From Blasia pusilla (lineage: Eukaryota): a stretch of DNA of 64,000 nt. Shown here piece after piece: positions 25,761 to 64,000 of the stretch (positions are counted from its first letter, which is position 1; each line of letters starts with the position of its first letter). A program made the position numbers and the translations under genes. The DNA lies in assembly GCA_050084515.1 (NCBI GenBank), contig CM114271.1, forward strand, positions 40,734,001 to 40,798,000, given 5' to 3'. Below the pieces are notes generated by a model, which saw only the letters and a program-made list of their open reading frames with translations, made no database searches and had not been told where the DNA came from.

Positions 25761-27383
25761 ATGGCAGTCTCGAGTCCAGCAGTGGCAGTTCCTCCATGCG
25801 AGGCCAAATTGCACTCCTTCCACAGCGGCAAGAACGCTCCGCCGCATCAGACTCAGACTGGTTTGTGGGAGACGTATGGGGAGAATGGGAGCGCAGGTGA
25901 CCTCGGTCTGGTGTCCATGGTGCCATCGATGGACCATCAGCAGCAGCAGGAGCGGGAGCAGGCTGCTGCGGGAATCCTGCATTATTCAATGCATCCTTCG
26001 ACTTCGGGATTGTCTCGCAATGAGTCATTCGACTCTGTCACCTCGAAGGACTCATGCACGCCATCCTTCTCGACTGGATCTCCGGTAACAGTGCTTCTAC
26101 CTGAGGCATACTCCAGCGGTACTTCCTCAATGGGCTTGTTCTCCACGAGCATGTCTACTCACGGGTGGGCAAACCCTCAGATTAGCAGCAAGAAGTCCAG
26201 CCCGGAGCACGAGGACGAGTCCGTGCACGAACTTTGGATGCATCAGGAGCAGTTCGTTGCCCACTGCGACCAATTTCTCGCATCCCCGGGACGGGGAACC
26301 TTCTCGTCATTGATGCCCGAATTGACTTACAGATATGACGATCAGGGCTGTGTGAACAACAGCAACGACTTCTCGTCAGTGACCGATCTGGAATGCCTGG
26401 TGCCATCGTCCCACCAAACGCACATTTCCACCACATCGTGCTCTCCAATTCCAAACGAGTCCCAGCAGCAAGCGACCAAATCACCGGAGTCCGTCGGCAA
26501 CACCGTCCACAGCTCTATGCAGCAGCAGGATTTATGCCAGGAGTTCCTCGTCGTCTGCGATGGAACATACTCCGAGCAGACTCCTCCCACCGTCTGCAAC
26601 TCCGGCGTCAACCAAAGATCCGAATCTTCATCGCTGTTGTCTCCGCCGTCCGCGAGGCGCCGTCTGAGCTGGTCAGAATACCAGCTGCCGGAGCGATGCA
26701 ACCAAGGCCCTTCATTGATCCCGGAGAGCCTCCAATTCAATGGCTTCAGCTCTCAGGCATACGATCGCCGCCTACTGGAGAATAACTCCATGAACGACAT
26801 TCAGTACCGCGGCGGTAGTCAAGAGAATGGCGGCAGTCTGAAGCGGCCCTACTCCGCGATGCAATCGACTTGCAGCATGTCCACTTCTGCGGCGGCCACG
26901 GGCCAAAGCTCTTTCCTGAATTTCGGAGCGGGAGGAGCGCCGAAGGTTAATATCAATCAGGCTGCGAGCAACCACCAGCAAGACGCGGCCGCATTGAGCG
27001 CGTTGCTGTACAAGACGCAAGGGAGCGAGCTGATGCAACAGATGCAGCAGGCGCAGGGAACGAGCAGCTCGGATTCAGCTCGGCAAATGCCGCCCCCGAA
27101 GCTGCGCAGGAGGCACGGCACCGCCACTGATCCGCAGAGCATTGCCGCCCGCACGCGGAGGGAGAGATTCAGCGACCGTATACGCATTCTGCAGAGCCTG
27201 GTCCCCAATGGCGAGCGCTTGGACACGGTGTCCATGCTGGGCCACACTTTGGAGTATGTGCGCTTCCTGCAACATCAAGTGTGGCAGCTGTACAATGGCA
27301 ACGACGACGCCGGAGTGTTGCCCGATTCGGAGTGTCGGGAAAAGTGGAAGGAGTTCATGGACGCGCAAACGGTGATGGCTTGA
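25761..27383 (+). CDS. bHLH transcription factor, subfamily-VIII-like (RSL/HECATE/LAX1-related), intronless, ~540 aa
   Basis: First ATG at 25761 (the ORF track starts at an upstream TTG). Long Ser/Gln-rich N-terminus. C-terminal '[55 protein letters not shown]' fits the plant (A/S)TDPQS.AAR.RRE.....L..LVP.G...D...ML....Y..FL pattern. Confidence 0.92.
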
Positions 27384-34400: not shown

Positions 34401-36800
34401 ACAAGCAGGGTGAAAAGAAAAAAACTGTCTAGATCATAGTCTAATCTGAGAAGTGTGATCGGTACACGACCCAAAGCCCTAAAAGGAATATTTTATTGGT
34501 TGTCTAGAGCTAAAAGTTGATGACAATGCATCGATCGGTGCGTGAGAGTACGTCTTGTGCGTATTAAACTGAGGTCGTGCCTGTGATGCATACCGATCAG
34601 TAAAGAAGGCAGAGAGCTAGTGGGATCCCACTGTCACATCCGTCCAAGGCTCACTCTGAGGTGCACTGCCTCGAGGCGCTCGAGCGCAAGCAGTCGTGCA
34701 CGTACACATTCCGATCCCTTCGACAACAATCGATCAGATAGCTTTTCATCATAACAGGTCTCATCACAGGTGAAAACGCAACATGTGCAAATGTAAGGCG
34801 TTTCTGCTCCCACGATTCTCTAGCTTAATTTCTAGCCAGGCCGATTCTACCGATGCATTGGCATTTGCACCCATCCGATCAGGTTGTATGTAATTATATC
34901 GAGTGAATGTACTCGAGCCTTTTAAAAACGTGTCGAAGAAAGAGAAAATGATTGCTCCAAATTTTGCCCACATGTTTAGTATAAACTGGCTCTGGGATGC
35001 CCCCTTTGCAAGTAGTCATGATTCCATTGGCGCTTTCTCACATAGTTTATGCATAGTTTTCTCATGGACGAATAGATATGTAGGCCTAGAGAGAGATCAC
35101 GAATCCAGGACATGCCCTTGGAAGCTCCTCATTTCACACACTTGCTCAGTCGGAAATGTCCATTCCTCTTGTACTATTCCACTGCCAATAGATCTGGGCG
35201 AACGATCCTGTCATTGGGTTCAGATCCAGACAAGTCTACACTCCCTTAATACGTCTCGTCATCATGTCTGATCATGTCCATGCACACGGCTCACTGTGAA
35301 TAACTTCGCCACTCGAGGGGTGGGGTCGTAGTGAGGCGGGTGATTGGATTTTCCCAGCCGGATGATTCGATTTGTCCTTTTCTACGTCGCGCCCATCTCT
35401 CAGCTATCTCGCGCGATCTCTCCTCATCGGGAGAGCAGTTGAGCAGCATCGGATCGATATCGTATAATAATACCGTTCGAACTTCGCTCTTCGATCGTCC
35501 GTCCGAGAGAAAGAATGAATTGTTGCCGCTGCTGCTGAGCCCAGGTTGAAAGATCGCGAATGTGGCGATGCCAGCTGTGCGTCGAGACAACCCGGGTCGT
35601 AGAATCGATCCTTGCATTTCCGGGACCGGCACGACGTTTTGGCTTTATGGCTTTTGCTGCCGTCCACCCGACTGCCACTGGACTTCGGGCTCCAATAGGC
35701 ACTTCTCGCGACATACACAATTGTCGCGCGCGCGCGCGCACTGTGCGCGAACTAGGTCGTCTTCTACACTGTGCGGCTGCCGCAGCGCAAACGGTCCATG
35801 CGATCGGGCATTTCACAACGGACTCGTACTTCTTAAGTCACAGAACAGTACATTCTCCGCCCGTTTAATCCACATATCCGCAAATGCGATCATTTAGTAC
35901 GTCTCGATCGATGTTCGACCGCACATGTATTGATCCGATTCATGCGCTTAAGTGGGATTGCGGTGGTTTCTCGTCGCGGGATCCGTCAATCCGGAGGCTC
36001 CCTCTAACGTCGGCATTTACGAACCCGCGTTTGAGTGAACCAGAATTCCGGTCACTGAATGGTCGAGATCTGCACCGCCGCTGCTGCAGCAGCGCACGAG
36101 CCTGTGGTTGACTGGGCTACAGTAGTCCTCGTTTGGGTCCAGCCTACTCCGGTCCCGGGGTCTGTCTTCTTCTGTTTGTCTGTCCGCTCCGCTCCGCTCC
36201 GGTCTGGTCCCCAGAGCCTTGAGAAGAAACTTCACCAACGGCACGAGAGTTACTTTCGATCGGTTGACTCTCCGTACGTGCATGAGTCGAGGGAGGGAAC
36301 GGCTTGCTTCCTTGTGAGGCGAAGCCTGGGCCGGCGAGCATCGTAGTTTCGGAGAGGACGTATCTCATCGCGTACAGTACATACAGCAGACGAGGCCAAC
36401 GTCAACGAGGAATTTGTCCTTTAGGGTAAGAGCCAAGGCCGAAGAACGCCTGGGGCACACGCTTGCGGTTGACAGGCTGTCGCTGCCCGACCTCGGGCAC
36501 GAGCCGGAACGGCATGTGTGCCGTAGATGGTCTTTCTCGATCCCCGAGCTCCTTGTTTTTCGTCTGCTCTTGCTGCGATCTGTGTGAATCGTTCCGTCCC
36601 GGCTTCGTGCTTGTGCTTCTTCCCTCTTTCGCTTTCTCGCATCTCTACTATCCATGATGTTGTGTCCTGGCGGAGAAGAAACCACCACTGCCCCTTCCAC
36701 TGAAAGAATCTCGCCTTCTCTCTCATCGATCTTCTCCTCTGGTCAGCCAGACGAGACGAACGACAGCCTTGTGGATCTAATGGCTTCTTCTCGCACAGTG

Positions 36801-36857
36801 CCGCCGCCGCCTCCTCCTCCTCCTCCTCCTCCTCCTCCCCCTCTTCCTCCTCCTCTT
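36801..36857. repeat. (CCG)3(CCT)n trinucleotide tract
   Basis: Read directly. It explains the poly-Pro and poly-Arg in the short ORFs here. Confidence 0.9.
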
Positions 36858-38299
36858 GTCGCCTAATGCGGGAGCGCTCCCGCTCATGGTGGGGGGGGAG
36901 GGCGACGCGAGGAGAGACGACGAACGAGCACTCTCGCTCTCCTCAGCATGATCGATCCTTCTCCTTCCACTGCCTATTTTCGGTGCCGGAGGCATCTGTC
37001 GATTGCGTTTCCCCTGACCATGGCAGAGGTTAGAGAGCGTGGTGGCCCAGACATGTAGATTCGCCCGCACCTCAGAGCGGAGGAGGAGCTGCGGAATATC
37101 TCTTCCTCTTCAATCAGAGCTCGATCGCGATTCCCGATCGTGCTCGAGTTTTAAATTCTCTACGCAGTTTTTCAACTCGACCGCTGGCAACACTGGGAAG
37201 TGCGTGTGTCAAGCACGAGAGCAAACAAAACAAACGATCTACTGCCTCGCGACAACTTCTTTCGTCTCCTCTCCTCTCTTCTTCCCTCCTCCTTTCCGAA
37301 TTGCACAAGCAAACGCGGGCTAGAAGATCCCGCGCTCGTCATTAATGAAGTACAAAAATCTTTCCTTTCGTCATTTTACAAGGATCCCCACGCACTTCGA
37401 TTCGTACATTCTACCTTCTTTTCATGTCATTTTGTTCATGCGGCACTAAGAATAATGGCTTTGTAGCAATTTTCAAGAAAATAGCAAGTGTGGTATTTAT
37501 ATTATTTATTAAGGTGAGAAAATTATTACAAGGAGAAAAAAATTTACAATAATCAAATTTTTGTGAATGAAAGTTTCATTGTTATTAATTGATGATATTA
37601 TAATTTAGACGGGTAATCTCTTTTTTTTTACTCCTACTATTTTCGAAAATAGTATGTTACATTTACTAAAATTAGAATGGATTTTGGATTTTTTTCATCT
37701 TATTGAAATTTGGGACACTTGATCATCCAAGTGTATGTAAGTTTCTTGCAAAATTTCAATGAAAATTGACGTGTGACAAAAAGAGAAGAAATAGATAAGT
37801 GAATTTTTGACCTGCACGATTATTCCTTCGAAGGACAAAGATCTATTCATCTGTCATCGTGTTCGAGTTTGTAATCGTCATGTGCAATGTGGGCCACTTC
37901 ATCATCCAAGTGTATCCAAGCTTCAAGCAAGATTTCAACGAAATTGGAGATAAGGCCAAAAGCCCAAAAATGGCTTAGTGGATTGTCGACCAGCGCGATA
38001 AAACCTTGTAAGGAAAGAGGGTGTGTCCATTTCTCTCATCTTCTTCAATTTTTTTCCCCACAAATCCTATCTTGACATTCAACTTTCTCTCTTTTGGTGT
38101 TTTGGAAAGTGTCTAATATAACTTCCTAACAAAAGATTTTGGAAACTAAAAGTATAGCAAATTTTTCTCTCTTGAAAATGGTACTTTTCAATTTGAGCTT
38201 CCATGTAAAACATTGTTTTATTATTAAGAATGTTACAAAAAAGAATGTGTACAATACTCTTTACGAAACAAGTTCCCTAACATCACCAATCATTCTACT

Positions 38300-39016
38300 A
38301 CTCTAGGTCGTCTCTCCAAATTCTCATGACTTCGACACATCTATCTCACATGTGGGCATCGTTGGTTGTCTCGGCAACATTGATAGTGTATGCAATGCCT
38401 CCGACAAGGTAAACGAGTGGGGAACTCTCGCTTGTCGCCCATCGGTCTCCTCCTTTGGGTCTATCTCCATCCCACCTCTCGATGGCTCAGTCACTCTCAT
38501 AGCACCCTAAGTCATCATTGCAACAGCCTCTACCTGAGCTCCACTACACACAAATCCCATGCTAGAGAAATCCTCTCCTTTCTCTTGATAAGAATTGGAA
38601 GCGCCACCCAAAGTAGATGCTCTCGGGTTCAAATCTATCCCCGGTTCATGGCCGCCATCCTCTGCTCCAATTGATCGATGCATGAGAGAAGCGCCGCCTC
38701 CGATGTACGCGCTCCATCTCCTCTAGCAGTTGGTGGACCTCTACCACCACAACCAAAATCTCCACGACCTCCACTAGACAAACGCTCCTAGGCCCTTGGC
38801 CTACCTCTAAACATGCCTCTCGACCAAGATTGAAACACTAGACACTTGTCTCTAGTGTGATCATATCGATGGCAATGGTCACACTTCAACTATGGTGGGG
38901 CCGTTCTAGGTGGCTCATAAGCAATCCAAGGTGCCCTCAGCCTTCTACCATATTGTGGGAAGTCCCTTTGCCTATGGGGCCCACCATACATCCAACAAGC
39001 CATCATCGGTCCCTCT
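38300..39016 (-). pseudogene. 3' part of gag of a host Ty3/gypsy-type element (zinc knuckles)
   Basis: Minus strand 38883-38842 encodes CDHCHRYDHTRDKC, a perfect CX2CX4HX4C. A degenerate knuckle CWMYGGPHRQRDF lies at ~38960-38998. RVPHSFTLSE at ~38400-38430 is homologous to RLPQSFTLSE in the nested element. Confidence 0.75.
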
Positions 39017-39017
39017 T

Positions 39018-39563
39018 GCTCTCTCACACACTCATTCTCTCTTTATAAAATAAGATCCAATCTCTCTCACGACACCATAGTTCTCACATGTGTGCACTCT
39101 CACATGTCTCTCTCAATGTCAAACCAAACCCACTCTCTTAATGAGAGTCTTGGGTTACACACACAAGGCAAGCAAGACCATAGCTTCGCCGCCTCATGCC
39201 AAGAGGTTCAACAAAGAGAGAATGAGTTCTTAAGCTCTCTATCCTTGAGGTATATCCCTCCCCTCTCCCAAGCTCTTTCCATGGTAACCTATGCTTCCAA
39301 GTCACCTCCTTGGCTCTTGACCTCATGTAGGAGGTCAAGTTCCACTTACCAAAAATAGAAATTTGATCATCTACTCAAAATGGTACTTACCTAAAATAGT
39401 AAGTTCCTCAATATGGCTCCAAATGAGTCGAAACGAAAGGGAAACTTGCTCTCTCAAGTTTCCTAGGGCCTGAGTAGGTCATCCTCGACCTACTGAGGGT
39501 GTCCTCTACTACTCACGAAGGCACTCTACTATATCTCACCGATCTATCCTAAAAGACGTGATA
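39018..39563 (-). repeat. 3' LTR (possibly truncated at its left end)
   Basis: Aligns to 47561-48182. Its minus-strand start is TATCACGTC vs TGTCACGTC in the other copy. Confidence 0.85.
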
Positions 39564-39877
39564 GCTATCGTGCGCATATACATCGTTACATAATATACAT
39601 CGTTGTCACCAAACACACACACAAACACGCACGATCCCATGCTTACTCATGGCATCCAAACGAGACAAAAAGTACCAAAATATCTCCAATCGCCTCCCTA
39701 GCTGGTGGTCAGGTCCCTCTAACTCCAAATAGCCATCTATCCCTACCTACCATGATATACATCTCTCGGACGCTAAGAGGAGCAAGAAGGCCGGGTGCTC
39801 ATTAGGCCCCATCGTTAGTCGCCTTCTTGTCATCCATGTCACAGACACAAGTCGGAATATAGAACTACCTACTCTAT

Positions 39878-40020
39878 GTACATCTGAGACACATCCATCA
39901 TCCCTCAGGAACCCTAGTGAGAGGTGGCGTCAAACATGCCATATGCCATCCTCTCGAATACCCATCACAGACTAGCATAGTGGCTGCATCACGGGCGGAA
40001 CCACACAACATACACCGAAA
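39878..40020 (-). pseudogene. PHD finger at the C-terminus of the integrase
   Basis: CMLCGSARDAATMLVCDG(Y)SRGWHMACLTPPLTRVPEG*WMCLRC: C4-H-C3 spacing with one Cys->Tyr change and an in-frame TGA before the final W.C..C. Confidence 0.88.
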
Positions 40021-41200
40021 GCTTGCAGGAACTACTGCTAAGCTCAAATCAAATGTACCGTCAATGTTTGAAAGATGACATGGCGCACACTTACGCACAT
40101 GGTCCTTCCAAACCATATCATCGCGTCCCTCCAATAAGAGAACATCGGATAGCAAAACCTCACGCACTCTCAAGATGGTACGCCCTGCAATCACATCCAA
40201 CGTTGTGGGTGCCGTCTGCTACAAGTAGACATGGTCTCCCTCATGAAACCTCCGGATAGTAGGTCGATAACCACCTCTCCGAATAGTCGCATACCTCAAC
40301 GTATCCCGATGTTGCGCAATCGCCAAGTTCTCAAACGCCATGGGCATCACTCTCCGAAACAACTCAGCCCTCTGAGAACATGCTCGCATCCATACATCAG
40401 GGTCATCAAGGTTCAACACCTCACCAACATCTCGATGAATGATCGCAGGTAAATCTCGCTCTTGGCCATAAAGCAACAAGTACGGTGAGAAAGACGCTAA
40501 GGATGCATGCCTGTTGAATCTGTATCTCATCACCAACCATGGCAACTAAAGATCCCAATCTCCTAGGTGACCTCTCTTCAAGCCATACTTGTGTAGTCCT
40601 CTCTTCACCGTATGCACAACCCGCTCTGCTAGTCCATCCGCCTCAGGATGATCTCGCAAAGTAGTGCGGTGGTCGATCAGTGCCTGATCACACAAGGCTT
40701 GAAACTCCTCGCGGAACTCTGTACCCTGGTCTATCAACACCTCAACAGGTGCGCCGTAATGACTCAGCACTCGATCTAGGAAGGCATACGTTACTCCCTC
40801 ACTCGCTTTATCAGGCAATGCAACCAACTCTATCCACTTTGAGAAGTGCTCAACCATCACCAACACATAACGACTATGATGCTCCGTCAAAGGCAAAGGT
40901 CTTGCAAAATCCAAACTCCATCTATAACCTAAACCCATGATCGAAAGTGGATGCAACTGTGGAGTGAGAGCATTGAACGATGCTCGAGCTTGATCACACA
41001 CCATGCATGTGGCAACAAACTGTTGAACGTCAATGTGCATGCCTCGCCACCACTACTGAATCTGGAGCAAGTTGTACGTCCGCTTCACTCCAAAATGATC
41101 CAACTCCTCGTGGGCATGATGCACCAAACATGCTCTCTTCAAAGGATGAGGCACTACACGCACTCTACCATCCTCCCACACTCACAACATATGTGTTCCC
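40020..41200 (-). pseudogene. Retrotransposon integrase
   Basis: HH-CC zinc finger (HHELGHFG...CMVC) and DDE triad WSLDFA / LIDQG / GLAER in ORF 40546-41040, continuing in 40219-40545. Confidence 0.92.
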
Positions 41201-41509
41201 TCCCACCGGAACCGTCTCGCTCGATGTAGGATCCGATCCCGCTCTCTAGCACCCATTGTGCTCGCAAGGCTGCCAGTATGCAGGTATTCCAAGACCACTC
41301 CATCGTCGTGAATGTCTCAGCCACCTGTCGTCTCCTCACCGGTCTTTGGATCTAAGGACTCTCCATCAGACCTCGCCATCAAGGTCTCAGTAATCTGGCT
41401 CTCCATAGCCAACAAGCCCAAATAGGCTGACGCATGCCATCCTGGCACCAACTCCTCATCACTCTCACCATGCCAACGAGCTCCAATCGAATCTTGCTGA
41501 CTCGGGCAT

Positions 41510-42100
41510 GAGTTACGGCTCAAACCATCTGCATCTTGGTTGAGCGTCACAGGTCTATGCACCACCTGGAAGTCATACTCTTGCAACAAATGAGCCCACC
41601 TCACAAGCTTCCTTGTAAGCTTGTCCGACCTCATCAACCACTTAAGTGGTTGATGATCACTAATGATGGTAAAGGGATTGCCGAATAGATAACATGTGAA
41701 ATATGCGACAGCCCATATTGCATCCAAGCACTCACCCTCATACAAGCTATACTTCGTCTCTACAACGTTGTTCAAGCGACTATTGTAAGCCACCATGAAC
41801 TCTCTACCATCATCGTCATGCTAGGTGAGCACAGCTCCAAGCCCCAATATGCTCCAATCGGTATGCAACTGGAAAGGACGCCCCTTGATCGGTCTCCTCA
41901 ATATGGGAATCCGTCCTTGAGCATCTAAAATGCTCTCTTCTGCTCATCTCCCCAGTGCCACTCCTGGTCCACCTTGGTCAGCAAGGTCAACGGCTTTGCA
42001 ATCGAACAAAAAACCCTTGACGTACCGTCGATAGAAGTTCGCCAATCGCATGAATGCACGAACCCGACTCACATCTGTAGGGCGTGGAATGCGTGAAATA
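41510..42100 (-). pseudogene. RT connection and RNase H
   Basis: RPFQLHTDWS..GLGAVL, VAYNSR, EGECL.AIWAV, SDHQPLKWL, ADGLSR motifs. Frameshifted. Confidence 0.9.
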
Positions 42101-42117
42101 ACCTCTACCTTCATCTA

Positions 42118-43065
42118 CTACACACCAAAGCCCCTTGAGTATATCGTATGACCCAGGTACTTAATGTGGTCGTAGAAGAACTTGCACTTGTCTGTATGTA
42201 GCTTCAACCCATGTAACAGCAATCGTCGAAATACCTCTTGTAGATGTCGCTCATGCTCATCAACTGTGGCGCTAAACACTACAATGTCATCAATATAACA
42301 CCTACCAAAATCCAGACCTGCCAAGGTCCTATCCTTGACCCTCTGAAACTCAGCCAGGGCATTCTTTAACCCAAATGGTAAGAATTGCCACTGGTACAAG
42401 CAGTCCTTCCTGTGAGGATCGATGCCCCAAAATATCATCTTCTGCCTATCCTCCAATCTGATAAGCAGTTGATGATATCCGGCTAGAAGATCTAACGAAC
42501 TGAAGACCTTTGCATGCCCAATAGCATCAAAGATCTCCTCAAGAGTGAGCATGGCATACCTATCGGACTTTTTTTTTCGATTGATAGGTTGGTAATCTCC
42601 ACACATCTGCCTATCCGTCCAGTTGTCATGCACATCCTTCTTGGCGGGCATGATAATGGCAGATGCATACTCTCCATGCGACATCTCCACTAGTCCTGCG
42701 CCAACCAAGTCTTGGCTCCTACTCTGAATGAGAGGCGTGTCCATGTCACTATACCTGTAGGTTCGTCGGAAGATCGGCGTGTCACTCGACAACTCAATGC
42801 GGATCCCTGGATCCTTCAGCGTACCCAAATCATGCATACTAAATGCAAAACAGCTCCTATAACTCCTAAGGAACTGGTGTATCCGACGCCGCTCTCCTCC
42901 TGTCAACTTAGGGCTCATATCTGCCTCCCAAGTCTCCATCGTGACTACGGTATGACTCTCCGGTGTGGATTTTGGTGGTTGGTATGGTGCAACCCCGTCT
43001 TGAAAAATAGAAGTCTCATCTCCACATGCAGTATTTGGAACCACGCTCGATGTTGTGGCCATCAT
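42118..43065 (-). pseudogene. Reverse transcriptase (gypsy type)
   Basis: MCGDYQPIN, FSSLDLLAGYHQ, LPFGLKNA, CYIDDIVVFS, KCKF...YLGH motifs in a 315-aa ORF. Confidence 0.96.
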
Positions 43066-43249
43066 CTCCTCGCGTACGTGCTAAACATCCCAAGAAGTCC
43101 AAGGGTGTCTCTCCCGATCATCCCTGGTGTGTCGATCTCCTTGGGTCTTGCCCCTAGTCACTACCTCAATCGTCTTGGTAGGCATGGGGCTCACCAACTC
43201 AACTTTTTTTATTTGTTGCATCCTCAAACGTTGCTCAGCTACTCCTAAG

Positions 43250-44170
43250 CTAAAAATCCATGTCACGCAGTTCAGGTCCAACGCCTGACCCAAGACATGA
43301 CGTCGTGATATCTCTGATAGTGACAGTACCGCCATCACTCCTGTGGGGAATCCCATCGCTTGCTCTCGCTCATCGGCGTTGGGCTCCATCAACCTCTGTA
43401 CCTGGTCATCCCAAACCAAGCTAGGTCCGGCCTCCTTGAATGCATAGGAAGCGATAAAACTCACCAATGTGGGAAAGGCTGCTCGTGGCATGCCATCCTT
43501 GTTGACTAAAGTCATTGGCGGTTGATCATCGTGCCTCACTGCTTGTGATCGACCGCCCGGATCCAATATAGAATCCACCAAAAATCGGAGGGACGCTCCA
43601 CTCTTGCATAAGCCCTCCGCAACACCTCATGTGGTACCAAGTTGGTCCATCATCTAGAACCTACACTCGTCACATCTAACAACAATACCGGGCCGATCCA
43701 TGCGCACACCTAATGTGCACTTGTCACCACGCGGGACCTCGAATCGCCCAAAATCGGAACATTCTCCAAAATGTATGCTGGAGAACGAGCCTGATGCTCC
43801 TGTAAATGTTGCAAGATCCACATCATCTCCCAAAACAACCTGGGCCGAGTGTCAGGTAACCCGCTACCTTGTCCAGCATTTGATTGGCCCTGACACGGCC
43901 AACCAGCAATGACCAAGTGTATGGTCCCTACCCGCTCCAAGTCGTGCGTCCCCAACAATGAAATATCCCTCGATAGGGAACTCTGGTAATCTTGAATGGC
44001 GGACGCATACAACAAGTCGGGAAAATGGAGGCGTAACAGCGCCATATGGTGAAGTCAACCGCGCCTCGAAACATCATCAATCTCCACATACAGGTACTAC
44101 TGCACGCGCACTCCCGCCTAACCCAGTGCTGATCCCTCCAAAGAGATCCAACACCCGAATACCCTTCTCT
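43250..44170 (-). pseudogene. C5-cytosine DNA methyltransferase domain inside pol
   Basis: Motif I IRVLDLFGGISTG; II YLYVEID; III DISLL; IV IAGWPCQGQSNAG (catalytic Cys codon 43895-43893); V DTRPRLF; VI YILENV; LLDVTSVGSR*WTNL (motif VIII core missing); TRD FPTL; IX EREQAMGFP; X RRHVLGQALD. All are in canonical order. Confidence 0.93.
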
Positions 44171-44589
44171 GGAATGCACCACACAATAAGGTTGGTGTCC
44201 AAAAGGGTCATAGCTGCACTCCTACCTACTTGGAGTTCCTCTGATCCGTCACACTCTAGTGCAAATGTCTCACTCCACGCAGTCTGCACATGCTCAGTGG
44301 CTAAGCGTCGAAGCTCCTTAGTCGAGCCCCAAAGCGGCACCTCTCCTCCACGGATTGCTACGGCTACCATGACACTCATCTTCATAGAAATGTCAAGAAC
44401 AGGAGTATCCTCTGCATGGACATGTCCCTCAATCAAATCACTAAGCCAAGTGATGGCACTACTAAATGCTGCTAAGGTCGCCATCTCTCCTGGTCGTCGC
44501 TCGATCACTCCACCTGTGAATCGAACGGGTAATGAGCTAAGGCGCCCATCATCTGTCTGCCATCGTGGTCTGTAAGAGGCTGACTCCTC

Positions 44590-44900
44590 CCAGTAATCCA
44601 GGGAAAACCCCATCGGGTATAATATTGCTCCACCAACCAAGACATCGTAGGACTCTTCATCAGTCACTATCACCTTGGCTCACACCACAGACTCATCTGT
44701 AGGATGTCCCAGGAAAATCCTCACCACGACCTCCTGTTGGGTGATATACTGTGTGGTATTCGCTCCACCCAAGGATGTCTGTATCCAAAATAGACAACGC
44801 TCCACATCGGCTCTCGTCAAGCTCAATCCTCTGAATGACGCATTCCCCAACATCAAGGGTTGTGTTTCTCAATCCAACAAGACGCACTGCGAACTAAAAG
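44590..44900 (-). pseudogene. Aspartic protease (degenerate)
   Basis: CVLLD*ETQPLMLG (degenerate D-S/T-G active site) at ~44850-44890 and C-terminal YDVLVGG at ~44630-44650. Confidence 0.7.
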
Positions 44901-45029
44901 ATCTACCTCTTGGACTCACCAACTGGAAGACCTCTCCCCGGTTATCCAACAAAACAACACCAGGAGAAGCCATGGCATGCTCTATTGCGGGTCTAGCGGG
45001 CATCTCCACCATCCTAGCACCCGCAGCCT

Positions 45030-45850
45030 GCTATGAATCTGACGTGGACGGCCCGAGCATTAGCTCCAAGGACAGGACCATCATCCCCTCTGCAATCACC
45101 TCTGAACGTGATACATGTACTCCATCTCCATGCTCACATAGCGTAGCAGCCAGCCAAAAAACCTCGGCGAGCGTACCTCCCAACCTCATAACATCGGAAG
45201 CAGAAAATAAAGAAGCGCGGTACACAACGGTGGCCGCCCCCAACAATTTGCTTGACACATGCCCCTCCTGAGCATCATCAATAGAAGTCGTCACACTCAC
45301 TTCTCCCATTGCCCTCCGTGCCTGCACACCAACAACATCACAAACTCTCCAAGAACTCTAATCATGACCCATCGATGGGGTCCTCATCGCTCGGACAACG
45401 TGAAAGATTGAGGAAGCCTGGTCTCTTTCTTGGCTTCCCCTCGCTGTGGATCCAACTCTGCAGCTACTCCACGCGTCACAACTACGGCAGCCACCATTTA
45501 CAGCATGGAACATACCGTTCCATGCTGTAAACAAGTTGAACTCTCTAGAGTTCCTAGCCTGCTATGAGTCACACCAACTCTTAAACTCCGCAATGAAGTC
45601 ATGTAGCTCTATGATGCCTACAACACTCGAAAACCTACGTAATCCTCTACCCCGGTCGTCAATCTTGTACGCCCAACTGGTAGGATCACTCAATGTGTAC
45701 GGTGGATCACTAACACACTCCTCTACACACTCCCCCTCATCTGAAGATGACATAGAAGGAGATCGAGGCAGTCTCTCACGTGGAGACCCTCGAAACCTCG
45801 CACCACCCTGGGTAAACCCTCCAGAGCTACTCTCAGGTCCATTACCTCGC
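45030..45850 (-). pseudogene. gag, internally deleted
   Basis: FSSVVGIIELHDFIAEFKSWCDS*QARNSREFNLFTAWNGMF is homologous to the host gag at ~48880-49030. It is followed after only ~80 bp by RLPQSFTLSE. No zinc knuckle is retained. Confidence 0.7.
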
Positions 45851-46841
45851 TTCTCAAAATCCTGAAAGGACGCCGTGATGGCCCTCGTGCCCCTCTCACA
45901 AAATCACTCTAAATCTCACGAGTAATCCCTCAATCACTCAAACTAAACATGCGGCACTCAATCTACACTCTTTCATTGAGACGTGTGTTGTGCGGCAACA
46001 AGCAGCGTGGTGCAAAAATCAACTGATCTATCGTCTCATCGACAAACCATCCTCAACTCTAGACATCGCACAATGGTCTATGTCTCCTAAACCCATACAT
46101 CATCAATACTCCTAGCATCAGCACAAAACCCAATATCCCAAATAACTTCCCAATACCCGAAAATCCCTCATACGTGCAGGGTAAGAGACCAGAATGGGTA
46201 ACTTGATAATAATGTCGATGTTGATCCTCGGAAACTGTAAATCTCAACCCCAACTCAGTCGTGGAGACAACTCCTCCAGTCAGCAAGTCGTACTCCTCTT
46301 GTACTGACGCTGCTCAAACCTCCTCGATGTGTGGTGCAAGTCCAACGGTCTGGTGCGGCACTGGCGGCACGGAACGGCTACAAACGGCACGGCACTCGGG
46401 AATGGGATGCGGCACTCGGCGGCATAACCTCCTCAATCAGCAATTCACATGCTCTGCTCCTTAATGGAGAAGCGGCTCCGCGATCGAGACGGTGCGGTGC
46501 GGCGAGGAGCGGCACGGCGCACCAATCGACGGCGCGTTGCGGCTACGGGCGTCACAGCATGGTACTCGATCATCATTGAGCGGCTACAAATCACAACATA
46601 GCAACATGAAATAAAAACTCAAACACCATAACCCGAGATCACCTGCCATCACTGGTTGATGACGAAACTGCAATGACGGTGGCGGCCAAACCAAAGTACG
46701 TGGTGGCGGCGCAAGTCAGAGAATCAACGATGGTCGTGGAAGACCCTAAACTCCTTAATGGCAAAAATGGAAATCAAGGGTGGACAACGACTGAACGCAG
46801 CTCTAAGCAGCGCTAGGTGGAGGCGGCAGCCAACGGTGGAC

Positions 46842-47000
46842 GGTGGACCGTTGACGGCGATGGTTGACCGTTGATGGTGACGGCGGACGATTGATGGTGA
46901 GGATTGACCGTTGATGGTGAGGATTGACCGTTGACTATAGAGTTGACCGTAAACGGTGATGGTTGATAGTCGACAGTGAAGGTTGGCCGTTGACGGTGAC
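46842..47000. repeat. ~20-bp tandem repeat (GGATTGACCGTTGATGGTGA-like), ~8 copies
   Basis: Repeated TTGACCGTTGA cores at 20-bp period in the element's leader or LTR region. Confidence 0.8.
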
Positions 47001-47560
47001 TATGACGGCGACAGCCGCCGCCAGCGCGGCGGCTGGTTTAGGGTTTGAACAATTTAACCCTAAAAATTGCCTAGCAATGGCAGTTTTGCAAGATTGACCA
47101 TAACTTTTTGCTCACACTCCAAATTTTGCACCATTTTTTGCACATTATGCACAGCTTCACGATCAACGACAACGTCAAAAAATATTTGGAATTGGACATT
47201 CCAGTAAAAACTGATGGGGACTATCGTAAAACCCAATGTCTCTTTCTCCTACACAAAATTGGGCAGCGCTTCCGCGCTGATTTCTCCCAACAAAAATGTA
47301 AAACCTATGAAAACAAAAATCTGCAAGCTACATGGTGCTCTCGAGAGCACCGGCATGGAGCAATCCGCCCCCAAATTCAATTCCTATTGAAAATTGGGCA
47401 GCGCTTCCGCGTGCCACTCTCCCGTACAAAAAATCAGCAAAGCAAAACAGAAAATGCGCACTGCTCTTGCTTCGGTGAGCACTCCCATGAGCCATGAAGC
47501 GGGGAACACCGTCCCCCAACCTCCACCAAACATCGAGCAACCAGCAAGCTCCCCCGTGAA

Positions 47561-48182
47561 GCTCTCTCACATACTCATTCTCTCTTTGTAAAATAAGATC
47601 CAATCTCTCTCACAACACCATAGTTCTCACATGTGTGCACTCTCACATGTCTCTCTCAATGTCAAACCAAACCCACTCTCCTAATGAGAGGCTTGGGTTA
47701 CACACACAAGGCAAGCAAGACCATAGCTCCGCCCCCTCATGCCAAGAGGTTCAACAAAGAGAGAATGAGTTCTTAAGCTCTCTCTCCTTGAGGTATAATC
47801 CACCCCTCTCAAATACTCATTCTCTCTTTGTAAAATAAGATCCAATCTCTCTCACAACACCATAGTTCCCACATGTGTGCACTCTCCCAAGCTCTCTCCA
47901 TGGTAACCTATGCTTCCAAGTCACCTCCTTGGCTCTTGACCTCATGTAGAAGGTCACGGGCCACTTACCAAAAATAGAAATTTGATCATATACTCAAAAT
48001 GGTACTTACCTAAAATAGTAAGTTCCTCAATATGGCTCCAAATGAGCCGAAACGAAGGGGAAACCTGCTCTCTCAGGTTTCTCGAGGCCTCGGGAGGTCA
48101 TCCTTGACCTATTGAGCCTGTTCTATAGTACTCACAAAGGAGCTCTGGTAGATCTCATCGATCTATCCTAAAAGACGTGACA
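47561..48182 (-). repeat. 5' LTR (portion alignable to the 3' LTR)
   Basis: Minus strand begins TGTCACGTCTTTTAGG at 48182. Contains a 76-bp insertion (47811-47886) absent from the other LTR. Confidence 0.85.
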
Positions 48183-49100
48183 AGGCTCACAATACTCACC
48201 ATGCTCTCTGGGCACACCGGCCTGCTCCCATGGTATTGGTGCACATTGAGGCACTTGTGGGGCTACTACTACTTGTGGGGTTACTACTACTTGTGGATCC
48301 ATCAAATCTCAAGAAAATCATGTGGTCACCACCTGCTCCTCACTCATGTTGGGCTCAATCCGCTTAGACAACTCGAAGACCAACTTCAATGTGAGCGTCG
48401 TTATGTGAAGCGACGTCGCATCTTGGACTCTCCTCCGTAGCTCCCAATCCAGAACTCCGTACCAATACTGTATTGACTGCACCTAAATTACTCCATATAT
48501 AGCAATGATCAGTCGACGCATATGCTTGAACGCCTGGCTCAGACTCTCACTCGATCTCCGATGAAAATCCTGTAGACTCTTCAGATTGTCAATCCGCACG
48601 CCCTAGTAGCTCTAGCCAACTGTTGAAAGAACTCAACCATCCAACTATAAGTAGATGGTGCTCTAGCACCATAGATCTCTGCCACCTCACCGCCCTCACT
48701 ACCATCATCTCCATCTAGTCCCAAGGTTGATGGTGTAGGTCTCTCCCCTCTCACTATCCCATCATATGCCTCGTGGCCACTAGTGAACAAATATACACGT
48801 TGGAGCCTAATAAATCCTCGAGGCATCAATCTCTACTGAATGTAAAGACCATATTTTCATGTAGTCATCCATTGTAGGATCCTCTAAATGCTGGAGCAAA
48901 CCCTTTCACGCCTCAAAAGGGTTGAACTGCGTAGGGGCTCGTATCTCCTAAAAGTCGCGCCATGTGTCCAATTCCTAGATGAAATCATCTAAGTCGATGG
49001 TGTCTCTCGCACCCGAGAAATAATGTATGCCCCAATCGCTCATGTCGTCGATCTCCTTCCAGGTGATAGTCTCTATTTGTGATCTTGTCACCGGGCCCAT
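48183..49100 (-). pseudogene. 5' part of gag of the host retroelement
   Basis: Minus strand ~49030-48880 reads FSGARDTIDLDDFI*ELDTWRDF*EIRAPTQFNPFEA*KGLLQHLE, alignable to the nested element's gag. Confidence 0.7.
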
Positions 49101-49525
49101 TTTCTAGTGACGATGATCAAACCACTGATGGGAGTCGGGGTGGTTCCTCACTCAAAACCCCTCGATACCTCACTCCACTCCGTGTAAATCCACTACCATT
49201 GCTCAAACTACCCCGTTCTTTTGAACATTGGAAGAACGTCGTGATAACAACCTTGGCTCAACTCAAGCACCTGGACTCACTAAGAGTCTCCCACACTCCT
49301 CACTAGCTCACCTACGCTAATGACAATCCCGTGATGACACATCCGGATAACGTAAATTCAACACTCTGGCTCACCATGAGCCTCTCAAACTAGCTCACTT
49401 AAGTTACTAACACACTCTCGGATCATACACCCGGCCCCTAATTGGGAAACCGTCCTACATCCACAAACATGCTACACATACAAGGAGTCTACACTTATCA
49501 TCATGGCTACATCCATCTAGCCAAG

Positions 49526-50840
49526 TGTCGTGACCCTCATAACCAAACAAATACCAAACAGACACTCAACGAAACATCACAACTTTAGTGAGTTCCCTCC
49601 TCGATGATTGCATTTTGGAGAGGTCTTTTGGAAAAGTCCAAGAGACAAAATGCGCAATACAGTTTGTGTGTTTCATGCGTTTATGGTCGCGACCAAGAAA
49701 CCTGCACCAAATGCGAACCAAGACTTGAGATGAGTTGAGTCTAGGAAGGTTGGTTATCAACTTGCCAAAGAGGTGAGAACGAGATTTGAAATGCGACTAG
49801 CATTTGGGGATTTTGACTGTGTTTTGGACCATAACGTTTAGTCCCAAGATTGCGTTTGGGACAAGTAAGGTGGCGTTGGAAATTTTACACCAAGACGATT
49901 ACAATGCACCAAAGATATTAGAAAATGCTGAAGCAGAGCTTGAGATATTTTCCAAAAATGATTGCAAGAGGAGTCAGGTCGAGGGCCAAACTGAGGGGCC
50001 CGACTGTCTTTCCTCAAAGTTAGGGGAAGGTCGGAGATCTCCTGAATTACTAGTAAGGGGAAGTGTCTCCAAGGATTCTTGGAACTCGAACTCCACTTTG
50101 AGCACCGAATGGGAGTTTGGCGTTGGAAACCCAAACCTGATCCAAGGGAGTGGATTTTGTAAGCCATACTTGGATTCCAACCCGTGACTCATCTTTGTGA
50201 GTCGCAATTAGGGGCTCATTGGATGTCCATTGGACAGTTGGGACCGCCAGCAAGGTTGCATGTGGATAAAGCCCGTGTCCGTGGACTTATGTCCGTTCTA
50301 TGGAAGGACTTGTCCATATGGGCCCCACCTTTTCCTTCTTTCTCCTTCCCCTTACTTGCCTTCGTGTTCCATGCTCCCCCGATTCTTCCTCCCTCCATCT
50401 CCACTCCCTCCTCCTTCATTGATCCACTTATCCTTGCCTTGCCTTCCATCATGGATTATAAGTGTGGGTCCCACCTCTTGGAACCCATGTCCATAGACAT
50501 GTTCAAACTTGTCTGTCCATGACCTTCCTAAGGAAGGATTTGTCAATTTTTATGCAACCATAACCGCCAAGCGTGCAAACGCAGTTTGAGGTTCCTGAAC
50601 CAACCAAAAAGTTTGTCCCAAATCTTGAAAGACTTGCCTCTATTGTAAACCGTGAAACTAGGAAGGTTGAGCTTGATGAGAGGCCGAGTCGAGAACTTGG
50701 AAGCTTAGAACACTAATTGACCCAGACCCGACTAACGTGAGTGTGTGTTTGGGTGCAGATCAGGATTGAGAGCATGTCCTACTGAATGCATGCTTCTGCA
50801 ACACTAAAGATTTACGTTCAAGGAGAGTAGGCGCACGACA
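49526..50840. repeat. Candidate LTR (host element or solo LTR), interrupted by a MITE
   Basis: TG...CA ends with a 7-bp terminal inverted repeat TGTCGTG / CACGACA. Lies upstream of the host gag on the minus strand. No second copy in the window. Confidence 0.45.
50251..50562 (+). mobile_element. hAT-type MITE (312 bp)
   Basis: CAAGGTTGCA...TGCAACCATA termini. TSD ACCGCCAG / ACCGCCAA (7/8). Co-linear with 18400-18695. Confidence 0.88.
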
Positions 50841-57757: not shown

Positions 57758-57904
57758 CTGCAAAATATTCAGGCATTCTCACGATAAGTAATGTTGCTAC
57801 CAAACCACACTAGTTACACCACTTTAGAAGTGTTTGCTCTCCACGAGGGGAATCGCTAGATAGTTTGAAGGGGAGCTTCTCTCCATACAAAATTCAACAC
57901 TTAC

Positions 57905-58905
57905 TTCATGTTTTGGTGGTTTCGTTACGACGGACTTCGGAGGAGTGGATGTTGCGGCAGGACGGCGGTCTTGCTCAGACACCATTCTCCAATCCTCGAC
58001 TGCAGAAGGCCCCTCATGCTCGACGAGTGTTGATTCAGATTTCTGTAGGACGGCGGTGATGAAGTCACCGGACATTGATCCTTTAATGCTCGCCGGTGCA
58101 GAACTGTCACCTACCTCACCTTGTCGGACGATCTGGACTTCTGCTGGATTTCTTACAAGAGCCTCGGAATCCACATCGTTACCTTGCTGGACTTCCAAGC
58201 CTGAGGCAGGAGGGCCAAGACTGCCTTCTGAAGAGAGATCAGTAGCAGTTAATGCTGCACTTCCTTCCAAAATATGAATCGCGGCTCCACACTCAACATT
58301 ACTGGGTCCATCGGAAATTTCCGTCACTAGACTTTCTTGTGTCAAGTCTGTATGCAGAACCCGCGTTTCACAGACAAGCTCTCCTGCAGATTCGACAGTC
58401 TTCTTTGTGTTTGGACTGCTAAAAGAGGTCATTTTCACTGATTCAGCTGGCCAATCTTTAACGATAATGTGCTTCTCTGCAATATCTTCAGACCCACTGA
58501 GATCCTGAGGACCCATGATACAAGAATCACTTTCTGAAAAGCAAGCGACACTCTCAACAGAAGACTGGTCGTTAGATTCGCTAGAGTTGCCAACTGCCGG
58601 CCCAAATCTCAGAGTGGCATTGGACACATCTTCAGAGTTCTTCAGAAACACATCGCTGGTGTCCAACTTATCCTTGGTCTGATTTTCACCATCATCTAAT
58701 CTCTCTGTGCCCTCGCTTACACTATTCGACAAGATATTTGTAGATGAGTCGTCTTCTTGGGCATAACCTGCCACACTTTCCTCTGGAAGCTCACTCAACT
58801 CGCTTTCATCGATGACAGTGATGACTCTCTCTGAAGTATTCCACTCTTCATCTTCTTGCACCTCCTTTTCGAATGGACTCTCTTCTTGAGGCATATCTGC
58901 GTTCC
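57905..58905 (-). CDS. Acidic repeat protein, internal exon
   Basis: Within the 363-aa E/D/S-rich ORF. TGTAG acceptor ending at 58906 and strong GTAAGT donor at 57904. Confidence 0.8.
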
Positions 58906-58955
58906 CTACAGTCACGAAGAAAGAATATTGGCAAATAGTTTACTTCTTGACTAAC

Positions 58956-60555
58956 GTCCTAACCCGACAAGGTGTCCAACATCACTCATAGCAATCAAAT
59001 TATTGTTGGAGATTTTCAATGAATGGAAATCTTCATTACCTGGTTCGTCGACTGGAGCAGCCTCGGTGCCACGAATTTCTGCTCGTAAAGTTTCCACCAA
59101 TTTCCCGTGTAATTGAACGTCATCAATTGCACTGACTTTCTCGCAAGGGCTCTCCTCATTTTGGTCTTTTTCTGGAATCGTTTCCTCAACTGCTGAGACC
59201 TCTGTCCTGATCTGAGTATGGAAATGAATTGAGGCCTCGCCAATTTCTTTGTCCTGAAAGACCTTCTCATCCATTTCAGGTCTTCTCTCCAGAACTGTTA
59301 CTTCAGATACTAAATCGTCTGGTTCCATCCCCTCTTCTTCCCCAACATCGGCTGATGATGATTGTCTTAGAGCTATATCTTCTCCCTTCTCTGGGATATT
59401 GCTTGCGACTCCTGAATCTGGAGTTCCGTTTTCTACCGTTACACCTGACTCTGCCAAATCATCAACCAGTCGAGTGCTCTTAACTTGCCATTCCTCTTGG
59501 TTTCCTCCAATTTTAGAGCTCCCTCCTGAGTTATCTGACTCAATACTAGAAATATGTGAGATTGTCTCATCTGACAGCCCTGCCACGGATAGAGTAACTA
59601 AGCCATCTCCAGCAGCTGTTTCTGAGTCTGAGATGACCTCTGGCTTCTCTCTTTTGTCTACAGTTTCAAAACTCCCCAGCATCTCCTGTGCTTCGGAGAC
59701 ATTTTCCAAGTTTGCATTCGCTTTCAGAGAGGTCAAAAGACTGTGTTCTCTGGCATTTCTAGCCACACCTCCAAAAGTCCCAAACTCATCCTCAGAAGCG
59801 CTCACGTCTGCCATGGCTGGCAATTCAAGGGCCTCATCAACTGTGTCTTCTGCACTTCCACTATTTTCTCCATGATTTCTTTCTGCCTCTTGTGAACCTG
59901 TACCACTATACGTCTCAGTTGGAGCGATAACTAGAGGCACTTCACCCTCGCCTTCCATCTCCACACCAATTAAGAGCATACTTTCAACCTCTGCGAAATC
60001 TTTTGGAGCCTCCATCTGTGAAGTTCCATCACTACCCACATCATCTTTGCTGACACTGTCGACTACCTCTCGTTCTCCTTCAAGGTTTAGGCATTCCTCT
60101 AATCCCGTTGAAATCAAGCTATCAAGTTTGGCTGAATCTTCTACATTCTTCAGGTCAGTCACCAGGGCGGAATCTTGTGTCTGTGACTCCGTAGTCGTAT
60201 GCTGAGTTAAATCTGCGACCTCAATTTCCACCCCAGGCAGATCCGCTTTGTCATTGAAGGTGAAATCATCTACTTCAATGTCCTTTGGAACGTGTGTCTC
60301 GGCAACCATTTGCAGGGTCCCATCATGTACCCGTGAAACTAGAGGAGTGATTTCTGCAGGATCTTGTGGAATCTCTGATGCTCCTGGGACAGAATGGCCT
60401 GGAGAACTTAACTCAGTAGCAGCCCCCAGACCCTGCTCTTCGACTCCAACCTCCGCACTTTCATGCTTCTCACCTGCACTTTCCCAATCACTGCCTTTAT
60501 TAAATCGGTATAGATTACCTTCCACAAAATCCAAATTCAAAACTTCTGAACCAGC
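58956..60555 (-). CDS. Acidic repeat protein, internal exon (boundaries approximate)
   Basis: Within the 550-aa E/D/S-rich ORF. Several phase-1 AG acceptors at ~60545-60590 and phase-1 GT donors at ~58955 or ~58986. Confidence 0.78.
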
Positions 60556-63900: not shown

Positions 63901-64000
63901 CATTCCTGCCATTTATGGAGACAGACTCATCTGCAGTCACATCTGATGCTCCCACTTCTCGGACTTCCGATGCACCAGAGTCATCTTCCAAGTTCTCCAC
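60931..64000 (-). CDS. Acidic repeat protein, large exon with ~24-aa repeats (open at window edge)
   Basis: More than 1000 codons without a stop. Repeat unit like ENLEAEAGASDVTEDESPTSVDRK. Candidate phase-1 donor AAAG|GTGTAT at 60930. Confidence 0.88.

Follow-up and report, generated by a model that had tools for sequence, protein, structure and literature searches.

A predicted DNMT3-type cytosine methyltransferase in a Ty3/gypsy retrotransposon family of a liverwort

The locus

Positions 43,250 to 44,170 of a window of 64,000 nucleotides from Blasia pusilla (contig CM114271.1 of assembly GCA_050084515.1; the window is the whole stretch analysed, and all coordinates are those of the window) are very probably the DNA methyltransferase (DNMT) domain of a dead copy of a high-copy liverwort Ty3/gypsy retrotransposon family, in which a DNMT3-type C5 cytosine methyltransferase is an inherited and selected part. 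The copy, here termed element A, is a decayed Ty3/gypsy element of 9.2 kb at about 39019-48180 on the minus strand, and is flanked by the gag of an older copy, B. The parts of both, in the direction in which the element would be read, are as follows.

48177-49031, minus strand: older copy B, N-terminal part of gag (Marchantia Gag residues about 10-301), interrupted by A (tblastn)
47562-48180, minus strand: 5′ long terminal repeat (LTR) of element A, with a private 84-nt tandem duplication near 47806-47889, inner end possibly 47523 (direct repeats, alignment)
45649-47561, minus strand: leader from the 5′ LTR to gag, in which a 20-nt tandem array occupies 46833-46999
45390-45648, minus strand: Gag remnant with an internal deletion, Marchantia Gag residues 9-60 being joined directly to 421-463 (tblastn)
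44620-45255, minus strand: aspartic protease region, a stop replacing the Ser of the D-S-G site (VLLD*ETQPLMLG, near 44869-44880)
44191-44619, minus strand: conserved linker from protease to DNMT, without a Pfam family (Pfam, BLAST)
43246-44190, minus strand: predicted DNMT3-type C5 cytosine methyltransferase domain, motifs I-X in order, with 5 stops, 2 frameshifts and the motif VIII core deleted (Pfam, translation, BLAST, tree; DNMT3 affinity via relatives)
42982-43245, minus strand: variable tail after the DNMT, including the homologue of the family stop codon
42118-42981, minus strand: start of the downstream frame and reverse transcriptase (RT) (RVT_1, E 1.7e-23)
41317-41820, minus strand: RNase H (RT_RNaseH, E 1.6e-21)
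40219-41052, minus strand: integrase, with zinc-binding tail, core and C-terminal part (rve, E 1.3e-13; Integrase_H2C2, E 1.1e-4)
39880-40218, minus strand: PHD finger at the integrase C-terminus (PHD, E 9.5e-6)
39019-39561, minus strand: 3′ LTR of element A, outer end possibly 38981 (direct repeats, alignment)
38360-39018, minus strand: older copy B, gag resumed (residues about 296-494, with a decayed CCHC knuckle) (tblastn)

Downstream of the DNMT domain Pfam recognizes RVT_1, RT_RNaseH, rve and PHD in that order, and the succession of protease, RT, RNase H and integrase between flanking direct LTRs is that of a Ty3/gypsy element. The direct repeats at 39019-39561 and 47562-48180, which are 91.9% identical over the 578 columns of a pairwise alignment, are taken as the LTRs of element A, and their spacing of 8.5-8.6 kb agrees with the 8.7 kb found in the related metagenome loci L028 and L043. 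Similarity between the LTRs does not continue past 47523/38981, and the approximately 40 nt of weaker similarity that follows each LTR is indistinguishable from chance extension. Genomic reads from other copies skip the 84-nt duplication. Counting against the assignment, no matching 5-nt flanks indicative of a target-site duplication are present at element A, whose LTRs are 8% diverged with ends uncertain by about 40 nt, and no primer-binding site was recognized in it. In the contig of L035, an intact relative that features prominently below, direct repeats were not found; the contig probably ends too early.

Gag of the same family flanks element A on both sides, the match to residues about 296-494 reaching as far as 39021, and A is therefore considered to have inserted in the gag of the older copy B, of which nothing is present downstream of the 38360-39018 segment. 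The window holds these two copies of the family. An initial annotation, made by inspection of the sequence, had called the DNMT-bearing copy dead, and it is: there are stops in the DNMT, in the protease and, numbering 10, within the RT-to-PHD alignment, and gag has its internal deletion. The stop in the D-S-G site of the protease was missing from the decay listed at that time.

The methyltransferase domain

The Pfam DNA_methylase family, PF00145, matches a 114-amino acid piece of the minus strand, 43710-44054, with an E value of 2.9e-10 and a score of 40.5 bits, above the cut-off of 22. With the motifs in order and RVT_1, RT_RNaseH, rve and PHD downstream, the match bears out the initial proposal of a C5 methyltransferase between the protease and the RT of a gypsy element. 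A stop-to-stop open reading frame (ORF) on the minus strand, 44077-44679, carries both the protease C-terminal stretch YDVLVGGAILYPMG and DNMT motif I, VLDLFGGISTGLGG, as had been noticed, and within it about 140 residues without a known family separate the protease end from motif I. Following a frameshift near 44120 a second frame supplies YVEID (motif II), GWPCQG (IV), ENV (VI) and GSR*WTNL, a remnant of motif VIII, and following another near 43595 the first frame again supplies GFPTG (IX) and LGQALD (X). Motifs I, II, IV, VI, the VIII remnant, IX and X are those placed individually in the three-frame translation, and their order, I to X, is unrearranged. DRM enzymes have a rearranged motif order.

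The domain is interrupted by five in-frame stops (first bases 44120, 44099, 44057, 43712 and 43652), and six residues of the core of motif VIII are gone relative to the GSRAHRARLWWTNL of relatives. Of the catalytic set of motifs I (FxGxG), IV (PC), VI (ENV) and VIII (RxR), the window copy keeps I, IV and VI with the core of VIII deleted and the frame broken; intact relatives such as L035 keep all four. Judged by these motifs the window DNMT is a pseudogene, whereas the family qualifies as a C5 cytosine DNA methyltransferase. The stops, the frameshift after motif I and the loss of the motif VIII core had each been recognized in the initial annotation, but the second frameshift had been overlooked. 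At its site, 43581, a one-base indel relative to the window copy is present in 359 of 727 genomic reads, and many genomic reads also differ from the window copy at the gag deletion, 45389-45390, so that those lesions are private to the window copy or to a subgroup. Numerous DNA reads depart from it at 45497/45506 in the Gag remnant as well.

Affinity to DNMT3 is seen via relatives. When P0018, one of the related proteins, is compared with solved structures, all 29 matches at E≤0.01 are DNMT3A/B/C, and the alignment spans motif I through a SAAHRARYFWGNL-like motif VIII and the GFP of motif IX. With the intact domain of L035 the first 29 of 50 structure matches are DNMT3A/B/C (6.6e-8 to 2.3e-5), followed by M.HaeIII (5e-5), M.HhaI (2e-4), tobacco DRM (4e-3), DRM2 (0.026) and DNMT2 (0.5). 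By its closest characterised enzymes and by the unrearranged motif order in relatives, the DNMT of the family is predicted to be of DNMT3 type. The likeness to host DNMT3, represented by mammalian DNMT3A/B/C, extends to the motif order, motifs VIII and IX included; in contrast to those enzymes no ADD or PWWP domain was found here, and the domain lies in a retroelement frame without introns. It weighs against the assignment that the 114-amino acid piece of the window itself has no solved-structure match at E≤0.01, so that for this copy the DNMT3 label comes from the 53-62% identity of its DNMT pieces to PF00145-bearing Marchantia and Sphagnum proteins.

Selection was gauged, region by region, by Nei-Gojobori dN/dS (the ratio of nonsynonymous to synonymous divergence) between the intact L035 and L038, which are 80% identical in protein. 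The value is 0.114 for the DNMT (325 codons, dS 1.43), 0.108 for the protease, 0.30 for the linker, 0.44 for the tail after the DNMT and 0.02-0.05 for RT, RNase H, integrase and PHD, all from a single pair whose dS of about 1.4 is near saturation, which counts against close reliance on them. A value below 1 had been put forward initially as a test of the family, and that for the DNMT points to purifying selection on the domain in this one pair of intact relatives. In a strict pattern count over the 75 rows of an alignment of relatives, which gives lower bounds, the Pro-Cys of motif IV is present in 66 and all five motifs in 31.

Relatives, host and transcription

The 114-amino acid piece has 476 relatives at E≤0.001 among 1.84 billion representative proteins. 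For the RT ORF there are 51 longer proteins at E≤1e-20, the named sources being Calypogeia (70% identity), Marchantia, Sphagnum, Klebsormidium and Closterium. The order protease, linker, DNMT and RT recurs in the liverworts Marchantia (P0171, P0174, P0192, P0201) and Calypogeia, the moss Sphagnum (P0183), the streptophyte alga Closterium (P0065, P0079, P0115) and several environmental proteins, and Closterium P0058 has CCHC, protease and DNMT without the RT part. Pfam matches to the protease are present in P0058 and in ORF1, the upstream frame, of L035. The DNMT stretch of Marchantia P0171 has 27 matches at E≤1e-8, with 17 from Marchantia gene models and one each from Calypogeia and Sphagnum. 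In a scan of metagenome contigs 427 stretches encode a relative; the best 80 of the 427 were kept, and all of these match a Gag-protease-DNMT-RT query, at about 69% DNA identity to the window. Absence of the domain from other members of the family would have spoken for a single capture; relatives in other genera do carry protease, DNMT and RT.

Raw reads from runs labelled with the host species were aligned at at least 85% likeness over 36500-50500 of the window. In the DNA run X12 the summed depth is 988-1553 in three DNMT bins versus 0.7-3.1 in four flank bins from 36500 to 38367, and the genomic reads reach a depth of up to 2919 in an integrase bin. Read depth being a rough proxy, several hundred copies of the family are indicated, with the DNMT stretch in a large share of them. 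Because the same order is present in relatives and the read depth is far above that of the flanks, the DNMT is taken as an inherited part of the element, and the initial view of it as a piece of the polyprotein and not a random insert is sustained by the relatives, by the best 80 of the 427 metagenome loci and by a DNMT depth hundreds-fold over the flanks.

Only 160 of 139,706 reads are at least 99% alike the window copy, with 3,640 being 95-99% alike, and from the scarcity of reads at or above 95% the window copy is therefore an old, private variant. Between 36500 and 50500 in the DNA run the copy has A/T where reads have G/C at 717 places and the reverse at 371, an excess of G-to-A and C-to-T in the window copy that would fit deamination of methylated cytosines. 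Hundreds of genomic reads connect 39689/39690, immediately inside the 3′ LTR, to 47589-47831 at the inner end of an LTR, with 256 for the junction of 39689 and 47589 alone, a pattern which suggests that the host has many family members with internal deletions, or LTRs arranged in tandem.

RNA-seq coverage extends from LTR to LTR in all three runs, with the flank bins 37434-38367 empty. In the DNMT bins the depth of first mates is 18-48 on the plus strand versus 0.3-6 on the other (3/3 runs), and on the assumed stranded library type the family RNA is probably of the minus strand, which is element sense. In run X15 the four likeness classes contain 3, 191, 1896 and 3711 reads, and most are less than 95% like the window copy; this shows transcription of the family and not of an intact DNMT frame, and so weighs against taking the RNA as evidence for the enzyme. 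The flank bin 36967-37433 has an RNA depth of 4-5, all its reads have the same four differences at 37279-37290, and they probably come from the transcript of a similar locus elsewhere.

As to the host, the single-exon bHLH gene at 25761-27383 (plus strand) shares 52% identity, along 100% of its length, with Marchantia polymorpha MpBHLH33, compared with 41-44% for Riccia and 40% for Calypogeia and with lower identity or coverage for mosses and ferns. The full-length match to MpBHLH33 makes the host a liverwort, in line with the bryophyte-like land plant suggested at the outset. The initial annotation also held that such domains are not standard in land-plant LTR elements. They are indeed undescribed, but they are not absent, as public Marchantia gene models already hold the family. 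A full-text literature search, in which subscription journals and supplements were thinly covered so that an earlier mention is possible, gave no description of DNMT-bearing retrotransposons in land plants, and the parts consulted of PMC9033089, PMC11982613, PMC8616336 and PMC6453930 have nothing on them.

A second layout, RT-RNaseH-DNMT-integrase(-PHD), is present in P0066, P0074, P0086, P0105, P0116, P0130, P0131, P0148 and P0150, the hosts being the chlorophyte Scenedesmus sp. PABB004 (P0105, named 'pol') and environmental contigs. A quick IQ-TREE tree of the DNMT (the 75 rows, 334 columns, SH-aLRT only, unrooted with midpoint drawing, nine near-duplicate rows excluded) has all 12 rows of this layout in one starred clade of 24 without any DNMT-before-RT row; the window DNMT is in a starred clade of 18 rows, comprising 12 from Marchantia, with Calypogeia, Sphagnum, 3 environmental rows and the window. 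The tree thus groups by element layout, and the domain would therefore have diverged alongside the elements and not often been swapped. Its rows are the relatives found here, with no named host DNMT3, DRM or DNMT1 among them, which weakens it as support for the origin of the domain, and it is therefore silent on the number of acquisitions.

Several other arrangements were encountered. P0060, from Closterium sp. NIES-54, is a predicted protein in which a related DNMT accompanies a copia-type RT (RVT_2) and an integrase part of the retroviral SH3-like kind, and P0162 of the same cluster (Closterium sp. NIES-53) has DNMT and RT pieces by BLAST; either a DNMT-bearing Ty1/copia element or a chimeric gene model may be behind them. 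Mesostigma viride, an early-branching streptophyte alga, has a related DNMT near the C-terminus of P0034 (890 residues) and P0296 (1155), with no RT in the same model. The environmental protein P0108 (1457 amino acids) has RT, a C5 DNMT and a Dam-like adenine methylase together, in which it resembles the dual-methylase elements in the available text of a preprint (bioRxiv 10.64898/2026.05.21.726589).

A conserved stop between methyltransferase and reverse transcriptase

L035 has a single frame of 2417 codons with one internal TAG, before which are Gag, protease and DNMT (1369 codons) and after which are RT, RNase H, integrase and PHD (1047 codons); L038 is built alike. The site was analysed in the 56 loci where motif X and the RT start could both be anchored. 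DNMT and RT anchors share a frame in 40 of them, and in 41 there is a TAG (32 loci) or TAA (9 loci), then CAA, exactly 25 codons ahead of the RT-start anchor. In L035 (TAG CAG TTA) and L038 (TAG CAA TCA) the stop is seven codons further upstream than in the 41 loci, L011 reads TAC CAA at the conserved site, and four of the 56 loci are rearranged there. In the window the homologous codon, at 42984-42982, is TAC, followed by CAA CCA, and the stop has been lost; the TAG at 43083-43081, which is 33 codons further upstream, looks like a private decay stop of this copy. In Marchantia, many gene models have about 1150-1280 residues and terminate a few dozen residues past the DNMT, as expected if ORF1 ends there.

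What is new here, on the reading of these frames, is that in the subfamily of the window the DNMT ends the upstream Gag-protease-DNMT frame. The initial placing of the domain in pol accordingly needs amendment: its position between protease and RT stands, but in the closest relatives the domain closes the Gag-protease frame and a conserved in-frame stop precedes RT.

Conservation of a TAG/TAA-CAA stop between the DNMT and the RT-RNaseH-integrase-PHD part points to stop-codon readthrough. Gammaretroviruses use readthrough of a gag-pol stop codon. The tobamovirus type of leaky-stop signal is UAG CAR YYA, which also works with UAA, and there too an in-frame stop with a CAA/CAG codon is situated between an abundant upstream product and the polymerase (available text of PMC3542737). 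The present stop differs from the tobamovirus and gammaretrovirus cases in coming after protease and DNMT and not after Gag, in being CAA CCC in most copies, and in being known from sequence alone.

Four considerations speak against readthrough. The exact CAR YYA context is present in L017, L035 and L038 only, while most of the 41 loci read CAA CCC (CCT in L068, CTC in L056), the last letter of which misses it. An ATG is present two codons past the stop in the 41 loci (TAG CAA CCC ATG), and for them reinitiation is possible. Eight loci of a more distant subfamily, with an identity of about 42%, lack a stop at the site. Finally, most of the 41 loci are decayed copies and their host genomes are probably few in number, so that the loci amount to few independent observations.

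RT-RNaseH-integrase-PHD might also be synthesized without readthrough, if ribosomes terminate and reinitiate or use an internal start, or if a separate or spliced RNA is translated. In favor of this are both that ATG and the prediction by gene callers of separate RT-to-PHD proteins of about 1030-1080 residues. Synthesis of this kind is distinctly unlikely all the same, since L017, L035, L038, L068 and the window lack the ATG but nevertheless retain the CAA/CAG codon, the two frames are in register in the 40 loci mentioned, and TAG and TAA alternate at the site with no sense codon except for TAC in two decayed copies.

Comparison with known elements

The known kind to which the family belongs is the Gypsy-DNMT3 of Klebsormidium. 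KnitGypsy-Dnmt3 of the charophyte Klebsormidium nitens is a Ty3/gypsy element with an unrearranged DNMT3-type domain in its coding region, and so shares with the family the gypsy backbone, the presence and place in the coding region of a domain of that type, and a streptophyte host (PMC5890265, as with the other statements on it, to the extent of the text available). Purifying selection on the K. nitens domain is reported there, with Ka/Ks under 0.2, and the dN/dS of 0.114 found here agrees with it. The present host, a liverwort, is a land plant; in this the occurrence is new, being absent from the literature found. Further departures from the published description are the plain LTRs, the stop that places the DNMT in the upstream frame, and the PHD finger. 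A figure legend in PMC5890265 has DIRS-like repeats for the Klebsormidium element, as against the plain direct LTRs here and in L028 and L043; the DNMT here ends the Gag-protease frame ahead of a conserved stop, the K. nitens layout being compared by text alone; and a PHD follows the integrase here, whereas the word PHD does not occur in the available text of PMC5890265. The RT of the window is 38-40% identical to K. nitens retrotransposon proteins. Two of these RT proteins, P0189 and P0190, are without a DNMT, and no DNMT-bearing K. nitens protein is among the matches.

SymbioDIRS-Dnmt3 of Symbiodinium likewise has a DNMT3-type domain inside a retroelement polyprotein, and in the available text of PMC5890265 it is the sole case with de novo CG methylation shown in yeast. 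Unlike the family considered here, it belongs to the DIRS elements, has a tyrosine recombinase and is hosted by a dinoflagellate; its authors regard it as an independent acquisition. The EpiLTRs of Cymbomonas and Euglena, in what is available of bioRxiv 10.64898/2026.05.21.726589, are also LTR elements with a cytosine DNMT and a chromatin reader, but the Cymbomonas DNMT is appended at the 3′ end of pol and the Euglena layout is structurally distinct, and in both the DNMT is accompanied by an adenine methylase and a chromodomain and groups beside DNMT4, not DNMT3.

The PHD finger merits consideration in its own right. That of ORF2, the downstream frame, of the intact L035 is recognized by Pfam at E 2.6e-10, and the solved PHD fingers nearest to it are those of CHD4, PHF12, PHF21A, KDM5A/B, ATXR5, KAT6A, DPF3, UHRF1 and AIRE. 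Most of these read the histone H3 tail with K4 unmethylated. Chromoviruses carry a chromodomain after the integrase, where the PHD is situated here, and have in common with the family a chromatin reader fused to the integrase C-terminus on the same Gag-protease-RT-RNaseH-integrase backbone; the differences are that the reader here is a PHD finger and that there is an additional DNMT. Pfam finds no chromodomain after the integrase in the window or in intact L035, the PHD being there instead.

Retrotransposons bearing the kind of enzyme that ordinarily silences them have so far been in print from dinoflagellates, one charophyte, the chlorophyte Cymbomonas and Euglena. The window extends them to a land plant, in which they are abundant and transcribed. 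The window copy is a fossil and the interest lies in the family, the more so as relatives in the tractable Marchantia make the role of a transposon-borne DNMT3, whether on its own cDNA, in the choice or marking of targets or on the host, testable. A survey of plant DNMTs could take Marchantia gene models of the family for methyltransferase genes of the host.

What the enzyme may do

The layout of the family would be LTR, Gag (CCHC), protease, linker, DNMT3, leaky stop, RT, RNase H, integrase, PHD finger and LTR. Most ribosomes would make Gag-protease-DNMT, and a minority would read through the stop to add RT-RNaseH-integrase-PHD. The protease may free the DNMT, which would then be present inside or beside the particle. 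On the readthrough interpretation the DNMT would be about as plentiful as Gag, with less RT and integrase, so that the conserved stop predicts dosage, with the DNMT made like Gag and RT via readthrough only.

The next step is the least certain and is put forward tentatively, namely that the enzyme may lay de novo 5-methylcytosine on the DNA copies that the element makes by reverse transcription, or on newly inserted copies and the DNA around them. Self-methylation of cDNA was proposed for such elements by de Mendoza et al. 2018 (in the text available of PMC5890265). The PHD finger of the integrase could steer insertion to H3 tails without K4 methylation, and new copies may in this way land silent, do the host little harm and persist. 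It counts against ascribing such activity to the enzyme that the Klebsormidium domain gave no methylation in yeast, a test that its authors call inconclusive (PMC5890265, available text). A more comprehensive proposal is that, with an enzyme at the tail of Gag-protease-DNMT ahead of a leaky stop and hundreds of transcribed copies, the family is a genuine contributor to de novo methylation in the cells of liverworts, marking its own cDNA or insertions with the PHD steering to H3K4-unmethylated chromatin, as a self-silencing kept in streptophyte elements since before land plants. Taken as a whole this is unlikely.

Action mainly in trans on the host genome, for instance by silencing competing elements or host defence genes, would fit the hundreds of copies with sense transcripts and the Gag-like amounts of DNMT that the frame layout would give, and such effects are discussed by de Mendoza et al. 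for Symbiodinium. K. nitens, which bears such elements, has however an ordinary plant-like methylome (both points as in the available text of PMC5890265), and action chiefly in trans is clearly improbable.

The DNMT might alternatively be kept for another role: it could methylate the RNA of the element, or it could be a module that binds DNA or dimerises without being catalytic, in the manner of DNMT3L with DNMT3A. It belongs to the Gag-protease frame and so is fused to a Gag that packages RNA, the inactivity on DNA in yeast of the Klebsormidium domain would suit such a role, and RNA methylation was raised by de Mendoza et al. for a LINE-borne DNMT (PMC5890265, in the part seen). Against it are the retention of the catalytic motifs in intact relatives (GWPCQG, ENV and GSYAHRPR in L035) and of the motif IV Pro-Cys in those 66 of 75 rows, a DNMT dN/dS as low as that of the protease, and nearest solved relatives that are DNA enzymes, with DNMT2 far behind. 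A role of this kind is very unlikely.

That a single copy captured a piece of a host DNMT gene, or that a retrotransposon adjoins a DNMT pseudogene by chance, might be thought of for a copy so rearranged, with its gag deletion, its nesting in another copy and its broken domain, but is ruled out by the same order with a conserved protease-DNMT linker in four other genera and in metagenome loci, by a DNA-read coverage of the domain that exceeds that of the flanks several hundredfold, and by the grouping of the DNMT tree by element layout.

Other features of the window

The ratio of observed to expected CpG is 0.70-0.80 in the element and 0.71-0.89 in the rest of the window, and is uninformative. 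An Rfam scan of the whole window gave 0 matches. At 57824-64000 on the minus strand there are open frames of 371, 561 and 1066 amino acids, the last of which runs off the window, for an acidic Ser/Glu/Asp-rich repetitive protein.

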